A stretch of 64,000 nucleotides of DNA, taken from contig CAVPPK010000002.1 in the NCBI GenBank assembly GCA_963707385.1, positions 354,673-418,672 on the forward strand, in the 5' to 3' direction. Each line of letters begins with the position of its first letter. Within the stretch, counting starts at the first letter, position 1. This DNA comes from an uncultured bacterium. Lineage in GTDB: Bacteria > Actinomycetota > Actinomycetes > S36-B12. The notes beneath the pieces are model-generated. The model was not told the DNA's origin. It saw only the letters and a program-made list of their open reading frames with translations, and did no database searches. Of the stretch, positions 14,330 to 59,202 are shown in pieces. The translations under genes were made by a program, and so were the position numbers.

Positions 14330-14340
14330 CGCACAGCAAC

Positions 14341-14397
14341 GGCCCCGGTCCGTCGATGCGGATGCTCTCGAGCACTCGCATCGATCGGTCCGGGGCC
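14341..14397 (+). terminator. Long imperfect hairpin followed by TTT
   Basis: ggccccggtccgtcgatgcg (14341-14360) pairs with cgcatcgatcggtccggggcc (14377-14397), followed by tttgc. It starts 12 nt after the paralogue-2 stop. Confidence 0.65.
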
Positions 14398-14469
14398 TTT
14401 GCACGCCTGCCGTCCCGTGGAAGGCTCGCGTCATGATCGACACAGGCGGACGAGCGGGAGTGGTGCGGC

Positions 14470-14643
14470 GTGCGGATCGGGGCTCCGGCCGTCCGGGCGC
14501 TGGCGCAGGCGGGCATCGGCTCCCTGCCCGAGCTCGCCGCGCGGCCGCGTGCCGAGGTCGCCACGCTGCACGGCATGGGACCGAAGGGCCTGCGCATGCT
14601 GGACGAGGCCCTGGAGATCGCGGGCCTGAGCTGGACGGCGTGA
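14470..14643 (+). CDS. Small helix-hairpin-helix-type DNA-binding protein (tentative)
   Basis: VRIGAPAVRALAQAGIGSLPELAARPRAEVATLHGMGPKGLRMLDEALEIAGLSWTA. The GIGxxxA...LHGxGPK pattern is HhH-like. The start is uncertain (GTG 14470, or ATG 14433 with a frame change). Confidence 0.4.
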   Translation: MRIGAPAVRALAQAGIGSLPELAARPRAEVATLHGMGPKGLRMLDEALEIAGLSWTA

Positions 14644-14659
14644 CGCCCCGGCGCTGTCG

Positions 14660-16678: not shown

Positions 16679-16710
16679 AACGGGGAATTCGTCTAGACGA
16701 ATTCCCCGTT
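16679..16710 (-). terminator. Intrinsic terminator: perfect 32-bp palindrome with a T-tract on the minus strand
   Basis: AACGGGGAATTCGTCTAGACGAATTCCCCGTT equals its own reverse complement. On the minus strand it is followed by tttcttttgt. It sits 22 nt after the ADH stop. Confidence 0.8.
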
Positions 16711-21238: not shown

Positions 21239-21311
21239 CCGGAAAATACTTGGAAGACCTTGCATCTCGGGTTTTCGCCTGTAGTGTTCGAGCGATCGTG
21301 AGGGAGGCCCG
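21239..21311. promoter_or_regulatory. Internal promoter/operator upstream of the ABC transporter genes
   Basis: ACTTGGAAGACCTTGCAT (21248-21265) and CTGTAGTG (21279-21286). Both sub-motifs recur at 7397-7425. GGGAGG RBS precedes ATG 21312. Confidence 0.45.
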
Positions 21312-40807: not shown

Positions 40808-41536
40808 TCAGTCCTGGTCGTAGCGCAGGACGTAGCTGACGCGGTCCATCCGGGCGCGCCGGCACACCCGCAGCACCGGCTCGCCGGTGGCACCGGCGGT
40901 CAGTCCGTCGCGGACCAGGATGGGCGATCCGGCCCGGATGCCGAGGATCTCGGCATCGTCGAGGGTGGCCGCGTCGGCCGAGATGGTGCGCCAGACGGGC
41001 CGCGGCTCACCGAGCACCACGTTCAGCTGGCCGTACAGGCCGGTCACGTTGTCCCAGTCGCCGGCCGGGTCCGCCAGCAGCGTGCGCGGGAACCAGGAGC
41101 TCGACCACATCCACGCGGCCCCGTTGACCATGAGGGCGTTGTCGATCCGCCACAGTGGGCCCGGGGGCAGCTCGAGCGTGTCGTTGAGTCCGTTCGAGCT
41201 CACCTTGGCCGCCCGGAGCAGGACGTCCTCGTAGGTGAGGCCGTGCTCGGCGATCTGCCCGGTCAGCCCCGCGACGAGAGAGTCGGTGGACAGCCGCTGC
41301 GAGAGCGGCAGCCGGACGATGGGGGCGCTCACGTAGGTGCCGGAGCCCTGCCGCGACTCGACCGCACCGGCGCGCGCGAGCTCCTCGATCGCCCGCCGCA
41401 CGGTCAGGCGGTTGACGCCGAGGTCCTCGGCGAGCCGGGACTCGCTGGGCAGCTTGTCCCCGGCCGCGTAGGTGCCGTCCGTGATCGACGCCGCGATCGC
41501 CAGACGCACGCGCTCGTACAGCGGCACTCCACCCAT
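40808..41536 (-). CDS. GntR-family transcriptional regulator, HutC subfamily (wHTH plus UTRA effector domain), intact
   Basis: PLYERVRLAIAASITDGTYAAGDKLPSESRLAEDLGVNRLTVRRAIEELARAGAVESRQGSGTYV. The C-terminal ~150 aa are UTRA-like. I prefer ATG 41536. Confidence 0.85.
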   Translation of the reverse strand: MGGVPLYERVRLAIAASITDGTYAAGDKLPSESRLAEDLGVNRLTVRRAIEELARAGAVESRQGSGTYVSAPIVRLPLSQRLSTDSLVAGLTGQIAEHGLTYEDVLLRAAKVSSNGLNDTLELPPGPLWRIDNALMVNGAAWMWSSSWFPRTLLADPAGDWDNVTGLYGQLNVVLGEPRPVWRTISADAATLDDAEILGIRAGSPILVRDGLTAGATGEPVLRVCRRARMDRVSYVLRYDQD

Positions 41537-41671
41537 GGCGGGACCGTATCGGGGCGCCGTGGCCGATGCATGCACAGGGAGCACTACGGCTCGGCGCGCC
41601 GCGGGCGCCCGGTCGCGCGCCGGGAGGCCAGCGCGATAGTTTCTTTAGACGGACTACAGTACGATCCCCCG
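41537..41671. promoter_or_regulatory. Divergent control region (GntR / NTF2-phosphatase-ALDH operon); candidate leaderless start
   Basis: TTTAGACGGACTACAGTACGAT (41644-41665). The -10-like TACGAT (41660-41665) ends 6 nt before GTG 41672 and there is no SD. Confidence 0.5.
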
Positions 41672-42983: not shown

Positions 42984-44444
42984 GTGATCGAGCGCAACGA
43001 CCTGTACATCGACGGCCAGTGGGTGACGCCCGCCGGCGGTGACGTCATCACCGTCGACGAGGCCGCCACCGGCGAGATCATCGGGACGGTGCCGGCAGGC
43101 GATGTCGTCGACGGCGAGCGCGCCATCGTCGCGGCCCGGCGTTCCTTCGACGAGTGGGCGCAGGTGCCGATCGCCGAGCGCGCCGACGTCGTGACGGCGA
43201 TCGCGACGGGCCTGCGCGAGCGCGAGGACGAGCTGGCGCGGATCATGGCGCAGGAGGTCGGCACGCCGCTGGCGACGTCGGTGCGCGTGCAGGTGGGTCT
43301 GGCCGCCTCGGTGTTCGAGACGATCGCGGAGGCCGCGCGCGAGCTGCCCGCGGAGGAGCGCATCGGCAACTCGATGGTCCTCCGCGTGCCGGCGGGCGTG
43401 GTCGGCGCCATCACGCCGTGGAACTACCCGCTGTACCAGCTCGCCGCCAAGGTCGGCCCGGCGCTGGCGGCCGGCTGCACCGTCGTCGTGAAGCCGAGCA
43501 GCGTCGCGCCGCTCGCGACGTTCGTGCTGGCGGACATCGTGGACGGGCTCGGCCTGCCGGCCGGCGCGTTCAACCTCGTCTCCGGGCGCGGCGCACTCGT
43601 CGGCGACCTGCTGTCGTCGCATCCCGAGGTCGACATGGTCAGCCTCACCGGCTCCACGGGGGCGGGCGTGCAGGTGGCCCGCTCCGCGGCGGGCACCATC
43701 AAGAAGGTGGCCCTCGAGCTCGGCGGCAAGTCCGCCTTCCTGCTCGCCGAGGGCGCCGACATGGACGCGGCGATGTCCGCCGCGGTGCGCGGCTGCTTCG
43801 TCAACAACGGCCAGACCTGCTCGGCGACCACGCGCCTCATCGTGCCGCGCTCGCTGCTGGCCGAGGTCGAGGAGCGCGTGGCCGCGGCGGTGAACGCCTA
43901 CGTCGTCGGCGATCCGCTCGACGCCGGCCACGGAGATCGGACCGGTGGCGTCGGCGGGCCAGTTCCGCACGGTGTCCAAGTACATCGAGATCGGCATGAG
44001 CGAGGGCACCCTCATCGCCGGCGGGCCCGGGCCGGTGGACGGCCTCGATCGCGGCTACTTCGTCAAGCCGACGGTGTTCAGCCGACTCGACCCCGGCGGC
44101 GAAGGTCGTGCAGGAGGAGATCTTCGGGCCGGTGCTCGCGATCGTCGCCTACGACGAGGGCATCGAGCAGGGCATCGCGATCGCCAACGACAGCGAGTTC
44201 GGGCTGTCGGGCGCCGTGTTCGCCGCCGACATCCCCGAGGCCGTCGCCATCGCCCGGCGCCTGCGCACCGGGCCAGGTGGCCGTCAACGGCGGTCGGTTC
44301 AATGCCAAGGCGCCGTTCGGCGGCTTCAAGACGTCGGGCGTCGGGCGCGAGCTCGGTCACCACGGCCTGATGGAGTACTTCGAGCTGCTGAGCCTGCAGT
44401 TCCCGTCGGCCGACGACCTGGGCTCGTTCGGGCAGACCGTCTAG
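42984..44444 (+). CDS. NAD(P)-dependent aldehyde dehydrogenase; about 3 frame interruptions
   Basis: [24 protein letters not shown], catalytic Glu ALELGGKSA, catalytic Cys [42 protein letters not shown]. Confidence 0.85.
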
Positions 44445-45089
44445 ATGGCGACGGCAGAGGAGCTCGGCATCGCGGAGCCGTGCGAGATCCTGCTCGTCCG
44501 GCACGCCGTGCCCGCAGCCGGACGGCACGCTGGATCCGGGTCTGGGCGACGAGGGCCTCGCCCAGTCGGCGTCGCTCGTCGACTACCTGGGCCCCGAGCG
44601 CATCGACGCCCTCTACTCCAGCCACCTGAAGCGCGCCGTGCAGACAGTCGAGCCGCTGGCGCGCCGAGCGCGGGCTGGACATCGTCGTCGACGAGGGCCT
44701 GCGCGAGTGGGTCTCCAACGCCAAGGCCTACATGGGCACCGAGGGCATGGTCGACACCGCTCGGACGAAGGCCTTCCTCGAGGGCCGGTACGAGGACGAG
44801 TTCATGCCGCCGCACAACGCCGACGAGCTGCGGGCCACGCATGCTGGCGACCATGCGTCGCATCGGACTCGCCCACCAGGGGCAGAAGGTCGTCGCGGCG
44901 AGCCACGGCGGCGCCTCGAACACCTTCCTGGCCGCCGTCCTCGACAGCCCGCGACGGTTCTTCTTCAACCCCGGCTACGCGTCGATCTCGCGGGTGCAGG
45001 TCTGGCCGGACGGCCGGTTCGTCCTGCTCTGCATCAACGAGCTGACCCATCCGCGCGACCGGGGCACCGACCTGCTGCCGATCGGCTGA
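44445..45089 (+). CDS. Histidine phosphatase family protein (3 of 3); about 3 frame interruptions
   Basis: ATG abuts the ALDH stop. [10 protein letters not shown] (RHA variant), [35 protein letters not shown]. Ends at 45089. Confidence 0.7.
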
Positions 45090-45170
45090 CGCCCCGCGCC
45101 CTTCCGCTCGGCAAGGGCAGATCGGGACCAAAGGCCCCACCGCGCGGCGACCGCGACGTCGTAGCCTCCT

Positions 45171-45206
45171 CTCAAGTCATCTACACAACTTGAGCGGAGT
45201 GCGTCC
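45171..45206 (+). promoter_or_regulatory. Operator-like inverted repeat upstream of Rieske-3
   Basis: CTCAAGT-N10-ACTTGAG (45171-45194) encloses AGTCATCTACACAACT (45175-45190), a degenerate copy of the dre-like palindrome. GGAG RBS precedes ATG 45207. Confidence 0.45.
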
Positions 45207-46476
45207 ATGACCGAGCTGATCGCCGAGGAGCAGAACCTCCAGCTCGAGGAGGAGGTCCCGCAGTGGCTGCGCAGCGACGTCCTCGACGGCGAGGCACGCG
45301 AGCAGGCCATGGCCATGATGCGCCGCCTGACGGTGCACCTGCGCGACAGGACGACCGACAGGCCGACTCCACGATGGAGGAGCCCATCGACAACTACCTC
45401 GACCCCGAGGTGTTCAAGGCCGAGGTCGACCTCATCTTCAAGCGCATCCCGCTGCCGCTCGCGCTCTCGGCCGAGCTGCCGCACAAGAACTCGTACAAGG
45501 CGATCGAGGCGGTCGGCGTACCCGGTGGTCATGACACGCGACGCCAAGGGCGAGGTGCACGCCATGCTCAACGTGTGCCGCCACCGCGGCGCGCTGCTGT
45601 GCGAGGGCCGCGGGCAGGCGCGGGCGCTGACCTGCCCGTACCACGCCTGGTCGTTCAGCATGGACGGCGGCGAGCTCAAGGGCGTGTACGGGGAGTCGAC
45701 GTTCGGCGAGTTCGACAAGAAGGACCGCGGCCTGATCGAGCTGCCGTGCGTGGAGCGGCACGGCGTCGTGTTCGTGTGCCTGACGCCCGGCCTGGAGATG
45801 GACATCGACTCGTGGCTGGGCGAGTGGGGTCCGCAGCTCGCCTCGCTCAAGCTCGACGAGTGCCACGTGTTCTCGTCGCGGATGATGCCCGGGCCCGAAC
45901 TGGAAGGCCACGATCGAGGGATACCTCGAGGCGTACCACTTCGCGGCCACGCATCCGAACACCGTGTTCAAGGTCAACCACGGCAACACGATGGTGTTCG
46001 ACGGGTTCGGCCCGCACGAGCGGCTGGGCTTCGCGCTCCGCACGATCGACGACGTGGTCGACGGGCCCGAGGAGGCGTGGGACCCGTCGCACCACGTGGG
46101 CCCGATCTTCTGGACGTTCCCGGGCTTCTCGATCGCCGGCGGCTGGCGGCAGCGGATGACGGTGGCCCTGTGCCTGCCGACGACGAAGGTGGACGAGTCG
46201 ATGACCGAGCATCGCATCGTGGTGCGGCACGCCATCGACGACACCGTCCAGCACGACCTCGAGGTCATGCGCGACTGGTTCTACGACGTCGTCTACAACG
46301 AGGACTACCTGACCCAGTACGGCGTGCAGACGGGCGTGCGGCGCCACCGGCGGGCACACGCAGGTCTTCGGCCGCAACGAGATCGGCGTGCAGTACCTCC
46401 ACCGGACGATCAACCGGCTCATCGACGAGAACCACGAGGAGGGCTACGCCCGGCCCCGGACGATCGACGCGGGCTA
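45207..46476 (+). CDS. Rieske [2Fe-2S] oxygenase alpha subunit, paralogue 3; about 4 frame interruptions
   Basis: CRHRGALLCEGRGQARALTCPYHAW, NWKATIEGYLEAYHFAATHPNT, C-terminus NEIGVQYLHRTINRLIDENHEEGYARPRTIDAG with TAG at 46474-46476. Confidence 0.8.
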
Positions 46477-46490
46477 GTCCCAGAGGTGCA

Positions 46491-46532
46491 TTGACATCCG
46501 ATAGTCGGCGCTCCATAGTTATCTAGACAACT
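46491..46532 (+). promoter_or_regulatory. Promoter with overlapping dre-like palindrome upstream of Rieske-4
   Basis: TTGACA (46491-46496), then 17 nt, then CATAGT (46514-46519). AGTTATCTAGACAACT (46517-46532) is palindromic in 14 of 16 positions. Confidence 0.55.
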
Positions 46533-46580
46533 TGGGTCGCCGGCTATCGGCGTGCCCTGCCTAGCGTGAGGAGTGCCCCC

Positions 46581-47841
46581 GTGGCCGACGTCGCCGAGAA
46601 GCTCGATCCCGAGGTCCTGCCGGAGTACGTCCCGAGCGACGGTGCTCGTCGGCGAGGCCCGCGAGGAGGCCGTCCGCATGATGCTGCGGCTCGCCGACCA
46701 CGTGCGGAACAAGACGACCGACCAGGCCGAGGGCAACTGGCAGGAGCCGGTCGAGAACTACGCCGACGAGGAGCTCTTCCGGGCCGAGGTCGAGACGATG
46801 TTCAAGCGGATCCCGCTGCCGCTGGCGCTGTCCTGCGAGCTCCCGGAGAAGAACTCCTACAAGGCCATCGAGGCCGTCGGGCTGCCCGTCGTCATCACGC
46901 GCGACGCCAAGGGCGAGGTGCACGCGATGCTGAACGTGTGCCGCCACCGCGGTGCGCTGATCTGCGCCGAGGGCACCGGCACCTCGCGGGCGCTGACCTG
47001 CCCGTACCACGCGTGGTCGTACGGCATGGACGGCGAGCTGCGCGGCATCTACGGCGAGTCGACCTTCGGCGACTTCGACAAGTCCGAGCGCAACCTGGTC
47101 CAGCTGCCCGTCGTCGAGGTCGCCGGGCTCATCTTCGTCTGCCTCACCCCGGGCCTGGAGATGGACATCGACGGCTGGCTCGGCGACTTCAAGCCGGTCC
47201 TCGAGGGCCTCAAGCTCGACGAGCTGCACCTGTTCTCGTCGCGGATGATGCCCGGCCCGAACTGGAAGGTCGTGATCGAGGGCTACCTCGAGGGCTACCA
47301 CTTCGCCTCGCTGCACCCGAACACCGTCTTCAAGACGAACCTGTCGCAACACCGGCGATCTTCGACGGCTACGGCGCCGCACGAGCGCGTCGGCTTCGCC
47401 CTGCGCAACCTCGAGAACAACATCAACGCCGGGGCGGACGTCGAGTCCCTGGACCCGTCGGCCAACGTCGGCGCGATCATCTGGCTGTTCCCGGGCATGT
47501 CCTTCGCCGGCGCGTTCCGCGAGCGCATGACCTGCTCGCTCGTCCTGCCGACCACCAGCGTCGACGCGTCCATGACCGAGCAGCGGGTGTTCACCCGCAC
47601 GCCCGTCACCGACGAGAACCGCGCACGACCTCGAGGTCTTCCGGGACTTCTTCTACGACGTCACCTACGGCGAGGACTACATCACCGGCTACGGCGTGCA
47701 GAAGGGCGTCAAGGCCGTGCCGGGCACCACCCAGCTCTACGGCCGCAACGAGCCGGGCGTGCAGTACGTCCACCAGACGATCAACCGGATCATGAAGGAG
47801 AACCACGCAGGACGGGCTACGCCCTGCCGCGCGAGGCCTGA
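46581..47841 (+). CDS. Rieske [2Fe-2S] oxygenase alpha subunit, paralogue 4 (tandem duplicate of 3); about 4 frame interruptions
   Basis: GTG start VADVAEKLDPEVLPEYVPSD. CRHRGALICAEGTGTSRALTCPYHAW. NWKVVIEGYLEGYHFASLHPNT. C-terminus ...GYALPREA ends at 47841. Confidence 0.8.
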
Positions 47842-47890
47842 CCGTCACCGCTCGACAGCGTCGCAGAAGCATGGACGACCAATTTTCTGG

Positions 47891-47930
47891 TTTCCATTGA
47901 CGGACTCCAGTAACTGGTGTGAGATGACCC
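47891..47930 (+). promoter_or_regulatory. Box upstream of the SDR / paralogue-3 / reductase operon
   Basis: TTGACGGACTCCAGTAAC (47897-47914). It combines a -35-like TTGACG with the GGAC..CAGTAAC box. Confidence 0.45.
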
Positions 47931-47978
47931 CACGGCGGTGACCGCTCTCGGGTCGCCCATGAGTCGCAGGAGTCCTTC

Positions 47979-48764
47979 ATGGCAGGTTCGCTCGACGGCA
48001 AGGTCGCCGTCATCACCGCAGGCAGCACCGGCATCGGCTTCGGCATCGCCCAGGCGTTCGTCGCCGAGGGTGCCTCCGTGGTGCTGGGCAACCGCTCCGA
48101 GGAGAAGGGCGCCCACGCCCTCGAGCGCCTCAACGTCGGCGACCGCGCCGTCTTCAAGAAGACCGACGCGCTGGTCCGCGCCGAGGTCGACGCGCTCATC
48201 GACTACGCCGTGGAGCACTACGGCACCATCGACATCCTCGTGAACTGCGCCGGTGGCTCCGACGGCTGGGCGATGATCGACTCGCTCAGTGACGAGGCCT
48301 GGCAGAAGGCCTTCGACTGGAACTGCAGCTCGGCGTTCTGGGCCACCCGTCGCGCGCTCGCGACCATGCTGCCCAAGGGCTACGGCCGCATCATCAACAT
48401 CTCCTCCATCGAGGGCAAGCACGCCTCGAAGATGGCCGTCAGCCACTACATCATGGGCAAGCACGCCATGAACGGCCTCACGAAGGCGACGGCCGCCGAG
48501 TACGCCACCCAGGGCATCCGCTGCAACGCGATCTGCCCCGGCCCCATCGAGACCGAGCTGATGCAGGAGGCCGGCGCCCAGGTCGCGCAGGCCGCCGGCA
48601 TCACCTACGAGCAGTTCCTCGACGAGTTCGCGCAGGACACCATGACCAAGGAGCTCAACACCGTCGAGCAGGTCGCCGGCATGGCCCTCCTGCTCGCCGG
48701 CCCGCTGGGCAACGGCATGACGGGCACGCTGTACAACGTCGACGCGGGCACCGTCCCCTACTAG
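47979..48764 (+). CDS. SDR family oxidoreductase, intact
   Basis: GKVAVITAGSTGIGFGIA, NCAG, ISSIEG...YIMGKHAM, RCNAICPGPIET. 261 aa in a single frame. Confidence 0.9.
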   Translation: MAGSLDGKVAVITAGSTGIGFGIAQAFVAEGASVVLGNRSEEKGAHALERLNVGDRAVFKKTDALVRAEVDALIDYAVEHYGTIDILVNCAGGSDGWAMIDSLSDEAWQKAFDWNCSSAFWATRRALATMLPKGYGRIINISSIEGKHASKMAVSHYIMGKHAMNGLTKATAAEYATQGIRCNAICPGPIETELMQEAGAQVAQAAGITYEQFLDEFAQDTMTKELNTVEQVAGMALLLAGPLGNGMTGTLYNVDAGTVPY

Positions 48765-48847
48765 GCCGAACCCTCCTGCGCCGCCGGTCACCCTCGGGTG
48801 CCGGCGGCGCACGGATGTCCGCACCCGAATCGAGAGAGGACCGAACC

Positions 48848-50601
48848 ATGGTGGACTCCTGGATCGTCGACTGGACCCGCAACGAGCGGCTGCCGTACTA
48901 CACGCGCGCCAACGCGGGCGAGGTGCTGCCCGATCCGGCCAGCCCGCTCGGGTGGAGCCTGGTGTTCGAGGAGGGCCTGCTGCCGGGCTGGTACCGCGGC
49001 TTCGTCGAGTTCGGCATCTACGGGCCGGACGAGTTCAACACCCCGCCGAAGATCCCGATGGTCGGCATCTTCGGCGGCTACTTCTACCTCAACCTCTCGC
49101 ACATGCGCCTGCTCGGCCTCCGGCTCGGAGCCGACCTCGACGAGTTCGACGCGGGCCTGCTCGGCTCGCACCCCGACACCCCGCCCTACGAGCCGCATCC
49201 GGACGACGTCAACCCGGAGCTGTCGGCCAAGGCGGCGGCGACGATCGGGGAGATCCTCGGATCGACGTCGTACCCGCTGATCGACGAGGACCGCCGTCGC
49301 ACCGCACGGTTCGCCGCCGAGCGACCCGACCTCACGACCCTGACGGACGCCGAGCTCGTCGCCCGCGCTCGCTGGTTCGCGCCCGAGCTCGACAACGGGT
49401 TCGCGCGCCACGACTACTCGAGCCTCGCCTCGACCATCGGCCCGAGCATCCTCGCGGGGCTGTGCGCGTCGATCGGCGAGCCCGACCTCCAGCTCGAGCT
49501 GATCTCCGGGCTCGGCGACGTCGACTCGGCCTCGCCGTCGTGGGGCCTGTGGGCGCTGTCGCGGGAGGCGAACGCGTCGCCGGAGATCACGGCGCTCTTC
49601 GACGAGGGCCCCGACGCGGTGCTCGCGGCGATCACCGACCCGCAGACGGACGCCACCCGGCGCTATGCCGAGTCGTTCGCCGCGTTCATGCGCGAGTCCG
49701 GCTCGCGCGGTCCCAACGAGTGGGACATCCACGCACTGTCGTGGGAGGCCGACCCGCTGGCCCCGCTCAAGCTCGTGAACGGGATCCGCAAGGCGTCCGA
49801 CGCCGACTCCCCGCAGGCGCGGCACGAGCGACTCGCGGCCCGTCGGGCCGCTGCTGCCGACCGCCTGCGTGCCGGCCTCGCAGGCAACGAGGAGGCGCTC
49901 GGCACCCTCGAGATGGCGCTCGCGTCGACGTCGCTGTCGGTGCCGGCGCGCGAGCGCACCAAGGCGACCTGCGTGGCCGTGGTCAACGAGGTGCGCATGG
50001 CCGATCCGCGAGCTCGGCCGCCGCGGCGTCGAGCAGGGCCTGTTCGCCAGGCCCGAGGACGTCATGATGCTGATGAACGACGAGCTCGACGCGTACGTGG
50101 CCGATCCGGCGCTCGTTCCGCGACGTCATCGCCGCGCGGCTCGCCGACTACGAGGAGCTGTTCGAGCTCGATCCGCCGTTCATCATCGCCGCGGATCCGG
50201 CACCGCTGTCGCAGTGGCCGCGCCGCACCGAGCGCCGCATGCCGCTGCTCAAGGACGGCGACGTCCTCACCGGACTCGGCGGCGGCGCGGGCCGCGTCAC
50301 CGGCCGGGTCTGCGTCCTCACCGATCCGTCCGACATGGCCCGGCTCGAGCCCGGCGACGTCCTCGTGGCGCCGTTCACGGATGCCGCCTGGACGCCCCTG
50401 TTCCTCATCGCCGGGGCGGTCGTCGTCGACGTCGGGGCCATGAACAGCCACGCCGTCGTGGTCAGCCGGGAGCTGGGCATCCCGAGCGTCCTGTCGGTGC
50501 AGACCGCCACCAGCCAGCTGGCCGACGGCATGGAGGTCACGGTCGACGGCACCGCGGGGACGGTCACTGTCGAGTCCACGGTCGCTGCGACTACCGTCTA
50601 G
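48848..50601 (+). CDS. PEP-utilizer mobile-domain (swivelling phospho-His) protein, paralogue 3, no ATP-grasp; 2 frame interruptions (near 50000 and 50115)
   Basis: MVDSWIVDWTRNERLPYYTRANAGEVLPDPASPLGW. C-terminus EPGDVLVAPFTDAAWTPLFLIAGAVVVDVGAMNSHAVVVSRELGIPSVL...MEVTVDGTAGTVTVE. TAG at 50599-50601. Confidence 0.8.
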
Positions 50602-50603
50602 CC

Positions 50604-51563
50604 ATGTCGTACGTCTACGAGGAGTACCGGGACCTGGTCGTCATCGAGCGCGTCGAGGAGGCCGAGGGCGTCGTCACGATCCGGCTCGGCGCCCCGACGG
50701 GGGAGAAGCTGCCCGGCTGGGAGCCGGGCGCCCACATCGACGTCGAGCTGGGCAACGGCATCGAGCGCCAGTACTCGCTGTGCAGCCACTTCCACGCCGA
50801 CACCTGGCGCATCGCCGTCCTCCGCGAGCCCGAACAGCCGTGGCGGGCTCGTCGTACATCCACGAGAACATCCAGGTCGGCGACGCCGTGCGCACGCGCG
50901 GGCCGCGCAACCACTTCCCGCTCGTGGACGCACCGTCGTACCTGTTCATCGGCGGCGGCATCGGCGTGACGCCCATGGTGCCGATGCTCGGCGAGGTCAT
51001 CTTCGACAAGAACGTGCCGTGGACGTTCTACTACGGCGGGCGCACCCGCGCGTCGATGGCGTTCCGCGACCGGCTCGAGGCCCTCGGCGTCGTGCTGTGG
51101 CCGCAGGACGAGAAGGGCCTGCTGCCCCTCGACGAGATCCTGGGCAACGCCGACCCCGACACGGCGGTCTACTGCTGCGGTCCCGAGCCGCTGATCGCGG
51201 CGGTGGAGGAGACCTGCGAGCGGCTGGGCCGGTCCGGCCCCGCATGTCGAGCGCTTCGCCGCGAAGGCCGTGGACACCACGGGCGATCCCGGCGACCACG
51301 AGTTCACCGTCGTCCTCAACAGCTCGGGCGCAGAGTACGTCGTGCCCCGTGACAAGAGCATCGTCCAGGTCCTGCTCGACAACGACGTGCGCGTCATGAC
51401 CTCGTGCGCCGAGGGCGTCTGCGGCACCTGCGAGACCAAGGTGATCTCCGGCGAGATCGTCCACCGCGACTCGCTCCTGTCCGAGGAGGACCGCGAGGAG
51501 GGCGTCTACATGATGCCCTGCGTCTCGCGCTGCAAGGGCGATCGGCTCGTGCTGGACATGTAG
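50604..51563 (+). CDS. Oxygenase reductase, phthalate-dioxygenase-reductase type (flavin/NAD domain plus C-terminal plant-type 2Fe-2S); 2 frame interruptions
   Basis: RQYSLCS (RxYS flavin motif), YLFIGGGIGVTPMVPML, C-terminal CAEGVCGTCETKV...MMPCVSR (C-x4-C-x2-C...C). Confidence 0.8.
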
Positions 51564-51606
51564 GGCTTCCCTCGAGACCCCGAGCGGGGGAGGATGACGG
51601 AAACTG

Positions 51607-51646
51607 CTGGGAAGTCCTTGCAAAAGTCGTCTAGACAACTGTACGG
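51607..51646 (+). promoter_or_regulatory. Composite box upstream of Rieske-5
   Basis: CTGGGAAGTCCTTGCAA (51607-51623), followed immediately by AGTCGTCTAGACAACT (51625-51640), which is palindromic in 14 of 16 positions. Confidence 0.55.
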
Positions 51647-51673
51647 TTGCGTCACCCCGCCGAGAGGATCCCC

Positions 51674-52819
51674 ATGACCACCACGCCCTTCGTGCCGCCC
51701 ACCCGCGGTGACGGCCCGCTGCGCTTCTCACCGGAGATCCCGAACACGCCCGGGCCAGTCCGAGACGATCCCGTCGAGCTGGTACACCGATCCCGAGCGC
51801 TTCGAGCTCGAGCGCAAGTACGTGCTCAACCCCAGCTGGCAGATCATGTGCCGCTCGGAGCAGCTGGAGAACGTCGGCGACCACGTCGTCTGGGAGGGCC
51901 ATGGCGAGACCATCGTCATCACCCGCAAGAAGGACGGCTCCCTCGGCGGCTTCCACAACGTGTGCCTGCACCGCGGCGCCCGCATCGTGCGCGACTCCGG
52001 CGAGTGCGCCCGGCGCTTCAAGTGCCCCTGGCACGACTGGGTCTACGACTTCGACGGCCAGGTCGTCGGCGTGCCGGACCGCGAGGACTTCGACCAGGAC
52101 ATCCTCAAGGGCCTCAAGGCGCACCAGGTCGAGCTCGACGAGTGGGGCGGCTGGGTGTGGGGAGTGCTCGACGGCCCCGGCGTCGCCCCGTCGCTGCAGG
52201 ACTGGCTCGGCGACGACATCCTCAAGGACCTCGGCGCCTACCGCATGGAGGACATGTTCCTCAAGGAGAAGCTGACCTGGTACGTCGACGTCAACTGGAA
52301 GGTCGTCGTCGACGCGTTCAACGAGTTCTACCACGCGCCGGCGCTGCACCACATCCCGCCGCAGGACGTCAAGGACGGCCGCGAGATGCGCATCTTCGAG
52401 TTCGACCGCCACTCGATGATGGTCGTCCCGCTCAAGGGCGCGCTGCCCAAGCTGCAGGAGAACCCCGACCACCAGTCGGTGGCGATCTGCCACTACACGA
52501 TCTTCCCGACGAGCGTGTTCAACAACAACCCCGAGCACCTGCAGCTGTTCCGGTCGGTGCCGGTCGCGCACAACAAGACGCGGTTCGAGACCTGGGAACT
52601 CTGGTACAAGACCGACGATCCCGACTACATCGCGCGCACGCAGCGGCACTGGGACCACCTGAAGATCGTCGTGGGCGAGGACGTGTGGACCTGGGAGGAC
52701 GTGGCTGCGGCATCGCGGTCGTCGTACTACAAGGAGAACTTCTTCAACGACCGGGAGTGCAAGATCCCGTTCTTCCACAACCAGGTCAACCGCATCATCG
52801 AGGAGGGTGTCGCGCGTGA
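51674..52819 (+). CDS. Rieske [2Fe-2S] oxygenase alpha subunit, paralogue 5 (third subfamily); leaves frame near 51750 and returns near 52790
   Basis: CLHRGARIVRDSGECARRFKCPWHDW, NWKVVVDAFNEFYHAPALH. The N-terminus and the stop are in the frame of ORF 51647-52819, and the body is in the frame of ORF 51708-53651. Confidence 0.8.
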   Translation: MTTTPFVPPTRGDGPLRFSPEIPNTPGPVRDDPVELVHRSRALRARAQVRAQPQLADHVPLGAAGERRRPRRLGGPWRDHRHHPQEGRLPRRLPQRVPAPRRPHRARLRRVRPALQVPLARLGLRLRRPGRRRAGPRGLRPGHPQGPQGAPGRARRVGRLGVGSARRPRRRPVAAGLARRRHPQGPRRLPHGGHVPQGEADLVRRRQLEGRRRRVQRVLPRAGAAPHPAAGRQGRPRDAHLRVRPPLDDGRPAQGRAAQAAGEPRPPVGGDLPLHDLPDERVQQQPRAPAAVPVGAGRAQQDAVRDLGTLVQDRRSRLHRAHAAALGPPEDRRGRGRVDLGGRGCGIAVVVLQGELLQRPGVQDPVLPQPGQPHHRGGCRA

Positions 52820-53651
52820 CCAGCCGGCAACTGACGTGGCGCCCGACGGTCTCCGACTTCACCTTCTCGTTCAACTGCATCGGCGAGGTCCCCCTCGCCG
52901 AGCGGTTCGCCGCGGCACGTGCCGCCGGGTTCACCGACGTCGGCATCAGCGTGCGCTGGACGAAGGCATGGCTGGAGGAGGGGCACACCCTCGACGAGCT
53001 CGACTCGCTCATCGCGGACGCGGGCATCCGAATCACCGAGCTCGAGGCGATCCGCGTGATGCGCGAGGACCAGGATCCGCTCGAGGACCTGGCCGCGGCA
53101 TTGGCCGAACGTCTGCGGCCCGCGCGACTGCAGGCGATCGGCCCGTACGACGGCACGCTCGACGACGCGGCGGCTCGCGCGGGCCGGGTCGCCGACCGCT
53201 TCGCCCCCTGGGGCGTCGACGTCGTGCTCGAGCCGCTGCCGTTCACCAACATGCAGACCCCGGCCGACGCAGCGGCCATCATCATGCGCGCCGATCGGCC
53301 GAACCTGTCGATGTGCATGGACGTGTGGCACCTGTACCGCATGGGGCTGCCGCTGTCGCACCTGGACGGCCTGTGGCCGTACATCTCGACCGTGCAGTTC
53401 AACGACGGTGCCGTCGAGAGCGAGTTCCCCGACGACCTACGCGAGGACTGCCTGCTGAACCGGCGGGTCCCCGGCGAGGGGCGAGTTCGACCTCGTCGGA
53501 CTCGTGCGAGCTCGCAACGCCCACCGCCCCGACTCGACGTTCTCGATCGAGGTCATCAACCCCACGCTGCGTGCAGCAGGACGCCGGACTCTCCGCGCGC
53601 CAGATCGCCACCGGGCTGGACGCGGTGCTCGCGGCCAGTCGGGCCGCCTAG
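52816..53651 (+). CDS. Sugar phosphate isomerase/epimerase (xylose-isomerase-like TIM barrel), second copy; 2 frame interruptions
   Basis: GTGA overlap start. FTFSFNCIGEVPLAERFAAARAAGFTDVGIS, VDVVLEPLPFTN, MCMDVWHLYRMG, STVQFNDG, C-terminus ATGLDAVLAASRAA. Confidence 0.7.
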
Positions 53652-53683
53652 ACCCCGACGGACCACACAGGAGAGAAGGAACC

Positions 53684-54160
53684 ATGACCAGCTACCGCGT
53701 CGACGGGCTTCGCTTCCCGGATCGCTTCGACATCGAGCAGTTGATGTACCGGTACGCCAAGGCCGCCGACATGGCCGACATCGAGACCCAGCTGACGGTC
53801 TTCCACGACGACTGCCGCGTGAACTTCAGCGGCGACACCTGGCTGGAGGGCCACGACGACCTCCGCGCCGCCTGGCAGAGCGCCTACACCCGCTACCTGC
53901 AGACCTCGCACGCGGTCACGAACATCTCCATCACCTTCACGGGCACCGACGACGCCGAGGCGGAGAGCCTCATCACGGCGTGGCATCGCGATGCCCAGGG
54001 CAAGGAGTGGACGCTGCACGGCCGCTACGTCGACACCTGGTACAAGGGCGTCGAGGGCTGGAAGATGAAGACCCGTCAGATCGTCGCGGCGGGTGCCGTG
54101 GGCCGTGACGAGTCGACGCTCACGATGATGCAGCGCCTGACCATGAGCGACGGACACTGA
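53684..54160 (+). CDS. NTF2/SnoaL-like protein, intact
   Basis: MTSYRVDGLRFPDRFDIEQLMYRYAKAADMADIETQLTVFHDDCRVNFSG...HAVTNISITF...WKMKTRQIV. The stop overlaps the next ATG (TGATG). Confidence 0.85.
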   Translation: MTSYRVDGLRFPDRFDIEQLMYRYAKAADMADIETQLTVFHDDCRVNFSGDTWLEGHDDLRAAWQSAYTRYLQTSHAVTNISITFTGTDDAEAESLITAWHRDAQGKEWTLHGRYVDTWYKGVEGWKMKTRQIVAAGAVGRDESTLTMMQRLTMSDGH

Positions 54161-54957
54161 TGGAGCGGATGCTCGGCCTGGCTGCCGTCGTCACCGGCGG
54201 CGCGCGCGGCATCGGCGAGGGCATCGTCCGTCGGTACGTGTCGGAGGGCGCGCGCTGCGTGATCGCCGACATCGACGTCGAGGCCGGTGAGAGCCTGGCC
54301 GCCGAGCTCGGCGACGACGTCGCCTTCATCCGCTGCGATGTGACGAGCGAGGACGACATCGTCGCCGCGATCGACCTGTGCGTCGAGCGGTTCGGCGCGC
54401 TCGACATCATGATCAACAACGCCGGCGTCTCGGGCGTCACAGGGCCGATCCAGGACACCGAGCTCGCGGACTTCGATCGCACCATGGCGATCCTGACGAC
54501 CAGCGTCTTCCTCGGCACCAAGCACGCGATGCGCGTCATGAAGGAGCAGGGGCACGGCTCGATCATCAACACGTCCAGCACGGCCGGCGTCCAGGGCGGC
54601 CTCGGCCCGCACGTCTACACGATGGCCAAGCACGCAGTGGTCGGGCTGTCGAAGTCGGTGGCGGTGGAGGCCGCTCCGCGGGGCATCCGCGTCAACGTCC
54701 TGTGCCCGGGAGCGACCCTGTCGTCGCTCACGGCCGCTGTGGTCACGGGCGACAAGGACAACCTCGACGCCGCCTACGAGCGGCTGTCGTCGAAGTACCC
54801 GGGCGGCAAGGCGCCGCGCCCGGAGGACATGGCCAATGCGGCCGTCTGGCTGGGCAGCGACGAGGGCAAGTTCATGAACGGCGCCGTGATCATCATGGAC
54901 GCCGGCAAGGAGGTCCTGTCCGACCGGGCCGCCAAGTTCTACCCGATCGAGTCCTGA
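54160..54957 (+). CDS. SDR family oxidoreductase, intact
   Basis: LAAVVTGGARGIGEGIV, INNAG, NTSSTAG...YTMAKHAV, RVNVLCPG. 265 aa in a single frame. Confidence 0.9.
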   Translation: MERMLGLAAVVTGGARGIGEGIVRRYVSEGARCVIADIDVEAGESLAAELGDDVAFIRCDVTSEDDIVAAIDLCVERFGALDIMINNAGVSGVTGPIQDTELADFDRTMAILTTSVFLGTKHAMRVMKEQGHGSIINTSSTAGVQGGLGPHVYTMAKHAVVGLSKSVAVEAAPRGIRVNVLCPGATLSSLTAAVVTGDKDNLDAAYERLSSKYPGGKAPRPEDMANAAVWLGSDEGKFMNGAVIIMDAGKEVLSDRAAKFYPIES

Positions 54958-54967
54958 CTCGGATTTC

Positions 54968-55029
54968 GTTGAGTGTGCAGTTGTTGGGGGCTCGACATCG
55001 TCGACGACCCCAACAACTGCACACTCAAC
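54968..55029. terminator. Bidirectional stem-loop between convergent operons
   Basis: Perfect 22-bp inverted repeat GTTGAGTGTGCAGTTGTTGGGG (54968-54989) / CCCCAACAACTGCACACTCAAC (55008-55029). The arm sequence resembles the 5941 hairpin. Confidence 0.75.
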
Positions 55030-55495
55030 GGGTCAACTTGCGGAGCGGCCGATCGTCGAGCTGCCGCTGAGGATCAGCCGCTCGTTGGCCAGCCGCACGC
55101 TGCAGCAGCGCCTCGCCCTTCTCGATGAGGGCGGCGTTCCGCTGGTCCATGACCAGGTCCATGGCGGCCGTGAAGGCGTAGCCCGCGCGGGCGTACTCGG
55201 CTGCCACGTCGGCCAGCAGGAGCGACTCGGTCGGCTGCAGGGCGTCGAGCCTCGCCTGCACGGTGGCGTCGCCGGTCGCCGTCGCGACCTCCTGCGCGAA
55301 CTCCCCGTAGAGCGCGATCTCCTGCTTCATCAGGGAGATCTCCGCCGCGCTGGCGTTCGCGGCGCTGTTGAGCGTCGCGATGAGCATGTGCAGGCGGATC
55401 TGGGCGGCGGGGTCGGTGATCCCGGGCATGACGTCGCGCATGAGCTGCTCGCAGACGTCCTCGAGGATGCGCGGGGTCGACGGTCGCGTGATCAC
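55025..55495 (-). CDS. Hypothetical helical protein translationally coupled to APH-type kinase 2
   Basis: GTG 55495 overlaps the kinase stop (GTGA). VITRPSTPRILEDVCEQLMRDVMPGITDPAAQIRLHMLIATLNSAANASAAEISLMKQEIALYGEF. Single frame. I recognise no family. Confidence 0.5.
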   Translation of the reverse strand: MITRPSTPRILEDVCEQLMRDVMPGITDPAAQIRLHMLIATLNSAANASAAEISLMKQEIALYGEFAQEVATATGDATVQARLDALQPTESLLLADVAAEYARAGYAFTAAMDLVMDQRNAALIEKGEALLQRAAGQRAADPQRQLDDRPLRKLTR

Positions 55496-56500
55496 TGGGA
55501 CGCCTCCGGTGCGTAGGGGAGCTTCAGGGCGATGTTCAGGTACAGGTCGTGGAAGTGCGCGGCGGCCGGGAGCAGGAACGGGCCCATCACGCCGCGGTGC
55601 TGGCCCTCGGCGACGTCCTCGAAGCCGCGCAGGATGTCCTCCACGAGGTGGATCGTGCCCAGTAGGAGGAAGTACTCGGTGATGGCGGGATTGACCTGCT
55701 CCTCGGTGAGGCCCGGTCTTCTCCCGGTAGAGGGCCAGGAAGGCCTCCGGATCCGGGTAGTACAGGTGAGGCGGCATGGGGATCTGCAGGTAGTAGCCGA
55801 GGTCGAGGCGAGGATCGCCGATCTTGGCGAACTCCCAGTCGATGATGTGCGGTTCGACACCCTCGGACAGCAGGAAGTTGCCCGGCTGGAGGTCCCCGTG
55901 GACGAGGGCAAGCGGTACCTCGGGCGGGATGTTCATGCGGATCTTCTTGACCGTGTAGGCGAGGATCGGATCCGGCTCGCCGAGGTTCTCCAGGATCCGG
56001 TCGTAGATCGCGATCACGCTGTCGATGTGCGCCCGCCAGCTCGCCGGCCGCTCGATCCCAGGATCGATCTTGTCGAGGGGAGTCGTGTGGGCCGACGCGA
56101 TGATGCTGACGAAGTCCTCGCGGGACTGGTCGAAGTCCGGGCCGCCGTCCAGGTACTTCTGCATCGACGTCGACTCGATGGCCTCCGACACGATGCACTT
56201 GCTGCCGAGGTACTCGCCCGTGGCGTCGTACCACCGCGGCCGGGGGATGCGGAAGTCGTCGAGGTCCTTGATCGCCTGCAGCAGCGCCCACTCCTGATCG
56301 CGATCGCTCCGGAAGACGCTCATGTCCTCGGGCGGGTCGCCACGCAGGACGAAGGCCTCCCGCGTCCCGTCGGCCCACTGGACCTCGGCGCGCACGGTGT
56401 CACGGCTGTAGCCGCCGGGGATCGGATCGGCGCTGAGGACGGTGGCGCCACGCTCGGGCTCGACGACGTCGAGGAACGACTGGAAGCGATCGATGTCCAC
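55492..56500 (-). CDS. APH/ChoK-fold kinase 2; one frame interruption near 55700
   Basis: GTG start with GGGAGA RBS. Brenner motif LVHGDLQPGNFLL, IIDWEFAKIGDPRLDLG. The C-terminus (LTEEQVNPAITEYFLLLGTIHLVEDILRG...) lies in ORF 55492-55911. Confidence 0.8.
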
Positions 56501-56536
56501 GGATCTCCCTATGCCTCGTGCGGGCGGTAGCTCAGG

Positions 56537-57013
56537 TCAGTAATGGTCGCGCGTGCCGCGCACGGTGTGCGGGCGCTTGGCGAAGTACTCCTCGGCGGTC
56601 GGCTCGGTGCGCGTCCAGTCGACGACCTCGGTCCGATGCGTGATGAGCCAGCGACCACCGCGGCGAGCGTAGCGATCGATGTACCGCCCGCAGATGAAGC
56701 GGTCGAATCCCTCGGTGGCGTGCTGGTGGAAGGCCTGGAAGTACACCTCGCCGGTGGCGGTGTCGCCGTCGATGGCGAGGTTGATCTGGCCGAGGAAGTG
56801 CTGGGTCGCCTGGTATGCGCCGAGCGCCCGCATGGCCATGTCCGGCATCTCGTCGGCGCCGCCGCGGAACGAGCCGTAGTGCGTCGTGGCGTCCTCGGAG
56901 AAGACGGAGCGGACGAGGGCGGGATCCAGCCGGTCGAGTCCGCGCATGTAGGTCGCCGCGAGGCCACGCAGCTCGTTCTCGTCGAGGAGGAGTCGCAGCG
57001 CAGGATCGGTCAT
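56537..57013 (-). CDS. NTF2/SnoaL-like protein, intact
   Basis: MTDPALRLLLDENELRGLAATYMRGLDRLDPALVRSVFSEDATTHYGSF...HFLGQINLAI...RWLITHRTEVVDW. The ATG overlaps the upstream stop (ATGA). Confidence 0.85.
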   Translation of the reverse strand: MTDPALRLLLDENELRGLAATYMRGLDRLDPALVRSVFSEDATTHYGSFRGGADEMPDMAMRALGAYQATQHFLGQINLAIDGDTATGEVYFQAFHQHATEGFDRFICGRYIDRYARRGGRWLITHRTEVVDWTRTEPTAEEYFAKRPHTVRGTRDHY

Positions 57014-58138
57014 GGTGCCAGCACGCATTCGAGGTGGCCGAAGCCGCGGTCCGACGGATCGTCGAGGTTCACGCAGATGGCGAAGTTCTCGGCCCAGGCG
57101 TCGGGCCGCTGCTGGAACCAGCCGGCCGGATCGCCGACGTCGACCGGATGGGACACGTCCCACACCTCTCCTTCGTGGTGGTCGTCGCCGCGGTAGACCC
57201 CGCGGCCCTGCCGGTCGGTGAACCCGTCGTGGTAGCCGCCGCCCTGGAGGTAGACGGGGGAGCCGACGGGCGTCAGCTCGTACCGGTCGACGGTGCCGTC
57301 CGGGCGGGTGAAGGTGACGCGGGTGCTGGTGGCGCGGGGGAGGCCGTCGACCCGGGTGGCGTCAGCGCTGACATCGACGTACGACCAACGCGGCTGTGTC
57401 GGGTCGAGCGGGATGACGATCGACTCGGGGGCGTCGAACGAGCCGTCCCCCTGCTGGTGGAACTGCCAGAACATCACGCGATCGGGCATCCGGATCATCG
57501 TCCACTGGCGCATGGCGAATCCCCGGCGCGGGTCGCGCGTCGTGTCCGGGGCGATCGCAGCCGAGGGCCCGCCTCCGGTGCGACCCATGCCCCACGAGTG
57601 ATCGCGCACGCCGACCCACGAGTCGGGAGTGACGGTGAGCGTGCGGCCGTCCACCGTGATCGACCCGGTGACGGCGCAGCACTGGTCGAAGTTGGTCCTG
57701 TCGTAGACCTTCCGGCCAGCGGAGAACCGGACGATGCGGTCCTCGAGGTAGGGCTCGTGCAGCCCGACCCAGTCGAGGTCGAAGCTGATGCCGTAGGGGT
57801 TGTCGCCGCAGGTCAGGCGCAGTCGGGTGAGCGGCTCGACGATGTCCAGGCGCAGCGGCCCGACCTCGATGTCGTCGATGCGCGGACGCAGCCGCCGGGA
57901 CCAGCCGCAGGTTGTGCTGCCGGCCGTCGACCGTGACGCACGCGAAGCCGTCGATGACGTCGGTGTTGGGGTACAGCCGGATGGCGGCGAAGAGGGTGGC
58001 CCCGGTGGCCTCGTCTCCGAGAGTGAAGTAGAAGCCGTCGTTCCAGTGCACCGAATCGCTGACGACGGAGTCGAAGGTGCCCCCGACCTGGTGCCGCGGG
58101 TACTCGTCCATGCGCGTCAGGCGTCCGGGGTCGGTCAT
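57010..58138 (-). CDS. Conserved hypothetical protein (about 375 aa, beta-rich); about 2 frame interruptions
   Basis: MTDPGRLTRMDEYPRHQVGGTFDSVVSDSVHWNDGFYFTLGDE..., DDIEVGPLRLDIVEPLTRLRLTCGDNPYGISFDLDW, C-terminal ORF 57010-57654. No family assignment from memory. Confidence 0.5.
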
Positions 58139-58199
58139 GGCAGGAGCCTACCGCCATTGCGGCTAGTTATGAGACAAAATGTCCTATAGAGTTCGGCTC
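58139..58199. promoter_or_regulatory. Divergent control region (57010 operon / epimerase-kinase-TetR operon)
   Basis: AT-rich. AGTTATGAGACAAAAT (58165-58180) is related to AGTTATCTAGACAACT at 46517. Confidence 0.4.
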
Positions 58200-59202
58200 A
58201 TGAAGACCCTCATCCTCGGTGGCAGCACGTTCGTCGGTCGGCGCATGGTCGACCTCCTCGCCCGGGAGGGCCACGACGTCAGCGTGCTCAACCGCGGGAA
58301 GACGGCGTCCAGCCTGCCGCCGGGCGTGAGCCGCATCGTGGGCGACCGCACCAGCACGGAGTCGATGCGGGCCGCCCTCGCCGGCACGGAGTGGGACGCG
58401 GTCATCGACGTCTCCGGGTTCGTGATGGCGGCCGGCGGCGGCGAGTTCGAGGAGCTGCTCGGGCTGCTCGACGGCCGGGTCGGCGCCTACGTCTTCGTCT
58501 CGTCGATCATGGCCTTCGAGCCCAGCGGCATCATGCCCTGGCGGGAGGACGCGCCGACGACGTCGGACCCGGTCACCACCTACGGCGGCTTCAAGGCCCA
58601 TGCCGAGCGGGCGATCCTCGACCTGCACGCTGCCACCGGATTCCCCGGCTCGGTGGCTCGCCCGGCGGCCATCTACGGGCCCGAGAACAACATCCACGAC
58701 ATGGAGACGGCGATGTTCCTGCGGCTGCGCCGCGGGCTGCCGATCCTGCTCCCGCACGAGGGCCTCGTGACCACCAGCTACGGCCACGTCGACGACCTGT
58801 GCCGCAACCTCCTCGAGATGGCGTCGCTGTCCGGCGGCCGCGGGCGAGGTCGTCAACGTCACGGGCGAGGGTGCGTCGTCCCGGGCCTTCACCGAGCTGC
58901 TCGCCGACATCGCCGGTGTCGAGCCCGACATCCGCGTGCTGCCGACCGGCTTCACGGACGCCAAGCCGGTCTACGGCCATCTGTTCGGAGTGAAGCACCA
59001 CGGCATCCTGTCCGTCGCCAAGGCCGCGGACCTGGGCCTGACGGTCGAGCGCGGCATCCGTCGCGGCTACGAGGAGACCTACGCGTGGTTCTGCGAGAGC
59101 CCGCTCGTCGACGCCCCTGACGCGATGTCGGATCCGATGTGGGGAGCCGGCTACGACTTCGCCCTCGAGGCCGAGGTGGCCGCCGCCCTGCGGGCCGGGT
59201 GA
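58200..59202 (+). CDS. NAD-dependent epimerase/dehydratase family protein; one frame interruption near 58845
   Basis: MKTLILGGSTFVGRRMVDLL (GxxGxxG), VFVSSIMAF, YGGFKAHAE (YxxxK), C-terminus YEETYAWFCESP... Confidence 0.8.

Follow-up and report, generated by a model that had tools for sequence, protein, structure and literature searches.

The stretch of DNA analysed here (64,000 nt from an uncultured member of the Actinomycetota, contig CAVPPK010000002.1, positions 354,673 to 418,672; referred to below as the window) contains short palindromes in front of several Rieske oxygenase genes and, nearby, a gene for a GntR-family regulator of the HutC subfamily. The question which this locus raises is whether the palindromes are operators and, if they are, which protein reads them. 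They had been described in an original prediction as dre-like 16-bp sites placed upstream of the genes Rieske-3, Rieske-4 and Rieske-5 and of an epimerase operon, and possibly gated by the regulator encoded at 40808-41536; all five sequences quoted there were located at the positions given. Three of the sites, S1 to S3, fit the 16-bp consensus AGTyrTCTAGAyrACT and, as judged from sequence and conservation, are almost certainly conserved protein-binding operators. We put the probability that the 40808-41536 product binds them and acts as a repressor at roughly 0.78.

Operator S1 (45175-45190, + strand, AGTCATCTACACAACT, 24.8 bits) lies 16 nt 5' of the Rieske-3 ATG at 45207, operator S2 (46517-46532, + strand, AGTTATCTAGACAACT, 31.9 bits) covers the -10 and +1 of the Rieske-4 promoter, and operator S3 (51625-51640, + strand, AGTCGTCTAGACAACT, 29.2 bits) fills the -35/-10 spacer of an inferred Rieske-5 promoter. 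Scores were obtained with a symmetric weight matrix built from 19 sites, namely S1-S3 and 16 orthologous sites from related genomes; in all 19 the base at -5 is T or C. Direct reading of S2 and S3 gave 14 of 16 self-complementary positions for each, as had been predicted, while of the two weaker copies proposed S1 proved to be a member of the family and 58165-58180 scored -2.4 bits. The G+C content of the window, 70%, by itself makes AT-rich 16-mers centred on CTAG rare. Three matches to the frame AGTNNTNTANANNACT with at most one mismatch were found against 0.10 expected, and none of 100 shuffles of the window reached three; with the 19-site matrix the next-best unrelated position in the window scored 1.4 bits, and the maximum over 200 first-order Markov simulations of 64 kb was 16.1 bits. 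Random occurrence of the palindrome at similar frequency inside coding regions, named in the original prediction as a ground for giving it up, was looked at as well, and the scan of the window gave no matrix match inside coding sequence. Centred exactly on S2 the window also has an extended dyad (CCGATAGTCGGCG, 46498-46510, and CGCCGGCTATCGG, 46538-46550) with 53 bp of symmetry, which was absent from the orthologous promoters; a CCGATAGnCGG box flanking S2 was not enriched in the window (8 matches, 8.5 expected).

The comparison set consisted of 35 independent orthologous loci (382 kb; G+C 54-72%; referred to by L numbers where needed), whose regulators are 62-95% identical to that of the window and which all come from freshwater metagenome-assembled Actinomycetota. 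Of the matches to the regulator in a search of genome contigs just 7 were true orthologues; all others were GntR genes of Collinsella, and these served as negative controls. Wherever an orthologous locus extends as far as the relevant promoters, these carry sites of 27-32.5 bits, the exception being an S1-type copy in L083 (19.6 bits). Altogether 38 matches of at least 15 bits were found in the 35 loci, 32 at promoters of Rieske genes and 6 at regulator promoters, and all 38 are intergenic; the control, 1.68 Mb around unrelated GntR genes, had 6 that reached 15 bits and none that reached 24 bits. All 38 sites are of the type G/C/T-T-Y-R TCTAGA Y-R-A-C/G, with an almost invariant TCTAGA core. 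The S3 block is essentially invariant in alignment A1, where mean column identity overall is 59%, and so is the S2 block in alignment A2, where intergenic mean column identity is 45%. L082, L101 and L083, which have two tandem Rieske genes, carry an S1 equivalent before the first gene of the pair, and an S3 equivalent occupies the same promoter position in 15 loci. These data show sites that occur well above chance expectation, keep their sequence and their place in the promoter throughout the 35 loci, and travel with the regulator.

Their placement on core promoter elements points to repression. The Rieske-4 promoter (46491-46519, + strand; TTGACA, 17 nt, CATAGT; 10 of 12 matches) was the only sigma-70-type scanner match in 45050-46650, and since the last three bases of its -10 (AGT) are the first three of S2, the operator covers both -10 and +1. 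The TTGAC(A/T)-17-CATAGT arrangement was found in eight G+C-rich genomes (L006, L082, L083, L097, L098, L102, L103, L106), and in lower-G+C genomes TAGTAT or TAGCAT overlaps the operator likewise before the first Rieske gene. S1-type promoters of L082 and L101 read GTTGAC, 17 nt, CAAAGT with the same operator overlap. At the putative Rieske-5 promoter (51618-51647, + strand; TTGCAA, 18 nt, TACGGT), which was read by eye with a -10 of the actinobacterial TAnnnT form, the operator lies between the hexamers: promoters of this type consist of TTGTGn (TTGCAA in the window), 1-2 nt, the operator, G and TAsrGT, and both hexamers are kept across 15 loci. Overlap with -35, -10 or +1, the geometry expected of a repressor operator, is seen for S2 over CATAGT/+1 and, with the hexamers as read by eye, for S3 in the spacer.

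The candidate repressor gene (40808-41536, - strand) encodes 242 amino acids from MGGVPLYE with a winged helix-turn-helix and a UTRA domain, which bears out the HutC/UTRA regulator that had been predicted at this position. The GntR domain matched PF00392 (E = 1.1e-20, full profile 1-64) and the UTRA domain PF07702 (E = 1.5e-7, profile positions 19-140 of 141). Full-length PDB matches were obtained to 2ra5, NagR/YvoA and DasR with E-values of 1e-11 to 1e-15; the best NCBIfam match was PhnF with 109 bits, below its cut-off of 156.8, and HutC reached 75 bits, below 220. No NCBIfam equivalog was found for the regulator, its similarity to DasR/NagR is distant (E about 1e-11), and by sequence it is not an orthologue of either. 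More than 185 homologues were found at E<=1e-10, with identities of 71-96% among the 120 matches listed. In four fully annotated loci (L001, L082, L083, L085) no other transcription factor gene was called within 10 kb to either side of the regulator. This, an operator at the regulator's own promoter in a sister subclade, the fit to HutC-family structures and an operator core shared with UTRA-containing repressors are what link the regulator to the sites; that it is the binding protein is inferred, as are the direction of regulation and the effector.

The structural fit was assessed against NagR. NagR was co-crystallised with GTGGTCTAGACCAC, whose half-sites (-7 to -4) are six bases apart; in it G-7 is contacted by the wing residue Gly69, G-5 by Arg38 and G-4 by Arg48 (PMC4333415). 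The sites described here have the same HutC-type dyad, with GT..AC half-sites at -7 to -4 and +4 to +7, a six-nucleotide gap and a TA centre (GT-N-TA-N-AC core). In the operator GTyrTCTAGAyrAC the G at -7 is retained, position -4 is a purine and -5 a pyrimidine, and the only difference from the NagR DNA is at -5/+5. In an ungapped alignment Arg48 and Gly69 of NagR correspond to Arg43 and Gly64, which are invariant in eight diverse orthologues (alignment A4), while the equivalent of Arg38 is Ser33 in the window regulator and Thr in L007 and L008. Loss of the -5 guanine pairs with loss of the arginine that reads it. By domain architecture the regulator is a member of the GntR/HutC subfamily, and by geometry the sites are HutC-type operators. 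The core also recurs in UTRA-containing repressors: BguR has the operator AAAAATGTCTAGACAAATTT, verified by promoter truncation, and the BguR and GmuR operators share the core TGTCTAGACA (TGTaTAGACA in GmuR) and overlap core promoter elements (PMC3585215).

The regulator's own promoter was compared as well. In the window (41534-41560) and the orthologous loci the gene looks leaderless, with TACGGT kept 6 nt before the start codon and no Shine-Dalgarno sequence before it. In the sister subclade, whose regulators are 62-66% identical to that of the window (L007, L008, L107-L112), TACCCT replaces TACGGT as the -10, and in all eight of these loci an operator abuts the TACCCT of the apparently leaderless regulator gene (AACCTGTCTAGACAATC and AGTTGTCTAGACAGAC are examples). 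L007 has the regulator-promoter site and both Rieske-promoter sites in one genome. A conserved 26-bp block in the divergent regulator/SnoaL1 promoter of the window (41637-41662, + strand, TAGTTTCTTTAGACGGACTACAGTAC) has operator-like ends spanning 18 bp and is kept in most of the orthologous loci inspected; it was considered as an operator of altered spacing and rejected, with no purine at -4 in either arm and a matrix score of 1.4 bits. Separately, on an unrelated metagenomic contig (L113) a gene for a 35%-identical HutC paralogue is followed by TAGTCATCTAGATGATC at 3525-3541, 13 nt before the ATG of the neighbouring gene, which suggests that the half-site preference extends beyond the orthologous group.

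On this evidence S1, S2 and S3 would be operators of a dimeric GntR/HutC-subfamily repressor, most likely the 40808-41536 product, whose gene lies 4-10 kb from the sites, with GTyr half-sites at -7 to -4 separated by TCTAGA and each site set on core promoter elements. At S2 the protein would sit over the -10 and transcription start of the Rieske-4/short-chain dehydrogenase (SDR) promoter, at S3 it would fill the 18-nt spacer of the Rieske-5 operon promoter, and S1 would have come along with Rieske-3 when the gene was duplicated in tandem. RNA polymerase would be shut out by the bound repressor until a small molecule at the UTRA domain releases it, and the oxygenase genes would then be turned on.

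The epimerase operon, for which the same palindrome had been claimed, does not belong to this set. Its promoter block (58160-58190, + strand, TAGTTATGAGACAAAATGTCCTATAGAGT) contains the inverted repeat GACA-N3-TGTC and is not a member of the operator family, the segment proposed as a copy having the negative matrix score given above. The bases that are conserved at the epimerase promoter form a different element, TGAGACAAAATGTCCT, and the block TGAGACAAAATGTCCTATAG is invariant between the window and L086 (about 9960-10000), L087 and L088, where it is followed directly by a TAGAGT-type -10 and a start that appears leaderless. The operon order epimerase, APH kinase, TetR is the same in these three genomes and the window, and the block is probably the operator of the operon's own TetR, which would make it a separate regulon.

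The core GTCTAGAC also occurs, as had been noted, in a perfect 32-bp palindrome at 16679-16710. Its centre, ATTCGTCTAGACGAAT, was left out of matrix building and nevertheless fits the operator matrix, with 23.4 bits. This palindrome lies 21 nt after the stop of a zinc alcohol dehydrogenase gene (16732) and about 40 nt before the start of an old-yellow-enzyme gene (16638), both on the - strand, and on that strand it reads as a terminator-like hairpin: the RNA folds to a 17-bp stem (-32 kcal/mol, z = -5.5) followed by UUUCUUUUGU, although the terminator pattern scanner did not flag 16679-16710. It is identical in the near-identical relative L169 and absent near distant old-yellow-enzyme homologues, and with L169 as its only other carrier the comparative data do not decide between terminator, operator and both. 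An intrinsic terminator appears to explain it at least as well, while its fit to the operator matrix is still far better than chance.

Could the operators belong to another transcription factor? The TetR of the epimerase operon and a LuxR/GerE protein (10434-11213) are both encoded in the window, proteins of both families likewise bind palindromes of 14-20 bp, the TetR operon is syntenic in L086-L088, and the subclade of the window has no canonical site at the promoter of the HutC gene itself; an unlinked regulator is a further candidate of this kind. The TetR operon promoter, however, has its own invariant GACA-N3-TGTC element and no matrix match, the LuxR gene is 30 kb away and outside the conserved neighbourhood of 10 kb on either side, and the HutC gene does carry a site at its promoter in eight loci. 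Moreover half-site and spacing obey the HutC rule, and the lone departure at -5 pairs with the lost reading arginine, so that we regard a different factor as unlikely. A role as RNA (a hairpin in the 5' untranslated region, an attenuator or a terminator), or as unusual promoter elements without a dedicated protein, is the least probable of the alternatives. S2 would be partly transcribed, and the 16679-16710 palindrome with the same core does fold to a strong hairpin with a U-tract, but S3, placed within the -35/-10 spacer, precedes the transcription start of its promoter, and the 16-mers are AT-rich with at most 7 pairs. What is conserved is the sequence rather than the pairing: arm differences are non-compensatory (AGTTAT...ACAACT, for example, or AGT versus ACT at the ends), which fits recognition by a protein rather than an RNA stem, and a motif found at three different positions relative to the promoter hexamers is not what one expects of a promoter element.

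Given that the HutC protein is the binder, it could still act as an activator or dual regulator, as some GntR-family proteins do activate transcription, and the conserved 18-bp look-alike upstream of the SnoaL1 -10 might be a differently spaced site with a different outcome. Against this, overlap of -10/+1 and filling of the spacer are classical repressor geometry, and the HutC relatives with this operator shape, NagR, DasR and BguR, are repressors (PMC4333415, PMC3585215); we think activation improbable. Repression by the 40808-41536 product remains the preferred reading, and several observations weigh against it. All orthologous loci are syntenic, so that co-occurrence does not separate sites travelling with the regulator from sites travelling with the Rieske genes, and a transcription factor encoded beyond 10 kb on either side of the loci may be responsible. 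Within the subclade of the window the regulator promoter is without a canonical operator and has just the 18-bp look-alike at 1.4 bits, so that the argument from self-regulation rests on the sister subclade. The hexamers of the S3 promoter were not flagged by the consensus scanner and are our own reading, and S1 of the window is without a convincing -35. With these points set against the comparative evidence (conserved promoter positions, a sole nearby transcription factor and sites at the regulator's own promoter in eight loci), the predicted gating by the HutC-type regulator was retained for the Rieske operons and dropped for the epimerase operon.

The genes under the proposed control form a syntenic island. 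The conserved order starts with the regulator, divergent from genes for a SnoaL-like protein, a Y_phosphatase3, an aldehyde dehydrogenase and a His_Phos_1 protein, continues with a Rieske oxygenase of about 420 amino acids, an SDR and an FNR/2Fe-2S reductase, and ends with a 384-aa Rieske oxygenase, an AP_endonuc_2 barrel, a SnoaL_4 protein and a further SDR. In the window Rieske-3 (45207-46526, + strand, Pfam Rieske) is a tandem paralogue of Rieske-4, with 73-89% nucleotide identity and a repeat spacing that drifts from 1363 to 1372; its frame breaks after about residue 250, and its tblastn alignments to orthologues end at residue 238. Rieske-4 (46581-47841, + strand, Pfam Rieske and Ring_hydroxyl_A) is a GbcA/CntA-like alpha-only Rieske oxygenase whose GTG start at 46581, aligned with orthologues, is out of frame with the gene body. 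The first Rieske gene is duplicated in the window, L082, L083 and L101 and is single in L001, L003, L006 and L085; the duplication carried the operator along, S1 being the copy. The window, L082, L083 and L101 also carry an inserted rifampicin-phosphotransferase-like gene for a phosphoenolpyruvate (PEP)-utilising enzyme. An SDR gene 3' of Rieske-4 (47979-48764, + strand, adh_short, 1.6e-50) is syntenic in all full loci. The FNR-type/2Fe-2S reductase gene (50604-51563, + strand, Fer2 domain) is frame-broken in the window, its orthologues having 318 amino acids with NAD_binding_1 and Fer2 domains, and no matrix match was found in the intergenic region upstream of it. It is followed by the Rieske-5 operon (51674-54957, + strand), which from Pfam and orthologue gene lists comprises a Rieske oxygenase, an AP_endonuc_2 TIM barrel, SnoaL_4 and an SDR.

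The Rieske proteins resemble carnitine, glycine-betaine and stachydrine mono-oxygenases and phthalate dioxygenase. PDB matches of the L001 orthologue of Rieske-4 were phthalate dioxygenase, stachydrine demethylase and CntA, and those of the L001 orthologue of Rieske-5 were CntA and the alpha subunits of benzene and naphthalene dioxygenases. A KshA/KshB steroid-hydroxylase system, suspected from the 384-aa Rieske protein, the 318-aa reductase and ChsH2/thiolase neighbours, was rejected: in PDB and NCBIfam the Rieske proteins match CntA, GbcA and phthalate dioxygenase best, with KshA only a weak PDB match (7e-5) for the 429-aa Rieske protein and absent for the 384-aa one. Interspersed with the Rieske, SDR, SnoaL, acyl-CoA dehydrogenase and ChsH2/thiolase genes are several PEP-utilising, rifampicin-phosphotransferase-like (Rph_4th) genes (9388-10143, 12600-14663, 20215-21315 and 48848-50601), together with no fewer than three genes for APH-family kinases, one for a Y_phosphatase3 phosphatase and several for His_Phos_1 phosphatases. 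This mix hints at a catabolic island that uses phosphorylated intermediates. Between the convergent SDR (ending at 54957) and APH-family kinase (ending at 55025) genes a perfect 23-bp inverted repeat with an 18-nt loop (54967-55030) is probably a bidirectional terminator. Megablast of 40-60 kb of the window against plasmids gave just short aldehyde-dehydrogenase matches.

Many genes of the window show frame breaks relative to orthologues (for example 42984-44444, 45207-46526, 46566-47841, 57362-58138, 58200-59120 and 15116-16638), recognised by Arg/Pro-rich translation tails, tblastn alignments that stop and resume, and starts out of frame with gene bodies. These look like the product of uncorrected long-read assembly rather than biology, pseudogenisation being the alternative; related 'contig_' records likewise show fragmented gene calls. 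With so many breaks simple gene calling from third-position G+C (GC3) and codon usage is unreliable in the window, and gene context was taken from synteny with called genes on related contigs.

The outcome is a 16-bp matrix together with three promoter architectures and a candidate repressor, all for the oxygenase island of abundant uncultured lake actinobacteria. With the operator the regulon can be delimited in complete genomes, and with the regulator the inducing metabolite can be screened for in vitro, which would be a practical route to the pathway substrate. A wider picture, tentative and in our own view doubtful, is that operator and regulator form a compact, undescribed regulon, widespread in uncultured freshwater Actinomycetota, over GbcA/CntA-like Rieske mono-oxygenases in a PEP-enzyme/APH-kinase/phosphatase island, that the UTRA domain senses a phosphorylated catabolic intermediate, and that the palindrome at 16.7 kb is a dual terminator/operator which adds the old-yellow-enzyme gene. 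The concept is that of a standard local-repressor circuit; the locus also offers a natural example of an operator and a protein of the HutC family changing together, the -5 G and its reading arginine having both been lost.

Among known systems NagR (YvoA) and DasR are the closest in design. The dre consensus of the DasR literature is A(C/G)TGGTCTAGACCA(C/G)T, and 14 of the 16 operator bases match it; shared as well are the GntR winged helix-turn-helix with UTRA, the 4-nt half-sites at -7 to -4 around TCTAGA, the conserved equivalents of Arg48 and the wing Gly69, and a G-7 that is often present in one half-site only, as in native dre. The differences are a distant relationship, Ser or Thr at the Arg38 equivalent, T or C for G at -5 (strict dre has GG at -5/-4, which the operators do not) and the target genes: in place of the N-acetylglucosamine (GlcNAc), chitin or phosphotransferase system (PTS) genes of that regulon, the neighbours here encode Rieske oxygenases, SDRs, SnoaL-like proteins, aldehyde dehydrogenase and phosphatases. 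The term dre-like therefore holds for half-site geometry and spacing and fails in the strict sense, there being no G-5, no orthology to DasR or NagR and no link of the genes to GlcNAc.

BguR of Streptococcus pneumoniae and GmuR of Bacillus, also UTRA-containing GntR repressors, share the exact operator core and the overlap with core promoter elements, but they control Firmicute beta-glucoside and glucomannan PTS operons and their operators have AT-rich flanks where AGT...ACT is found here. PhnF and HutC proper give the best full-length NCBIfam profile matches of the regulator, yet the scores are far below the cut-offs and no phosphonate or histidine-utilisation genes are nearby. In Actinomycetota, KstR and KstR2 are TetR-family local repressors with palindromic operators on promoters of Rieske oxygenase and acyl-CoA-type catabolic genes. 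The common feature is a local repressor with palindromic operators at actinobacterial oxygenase promoters, whereas KstR and KstR2 belong to another family with other motifs, and the Rieske proteins here are not KshA. By analogy, the system of the window would work as local repression of the NagR/DasR/BguR type.

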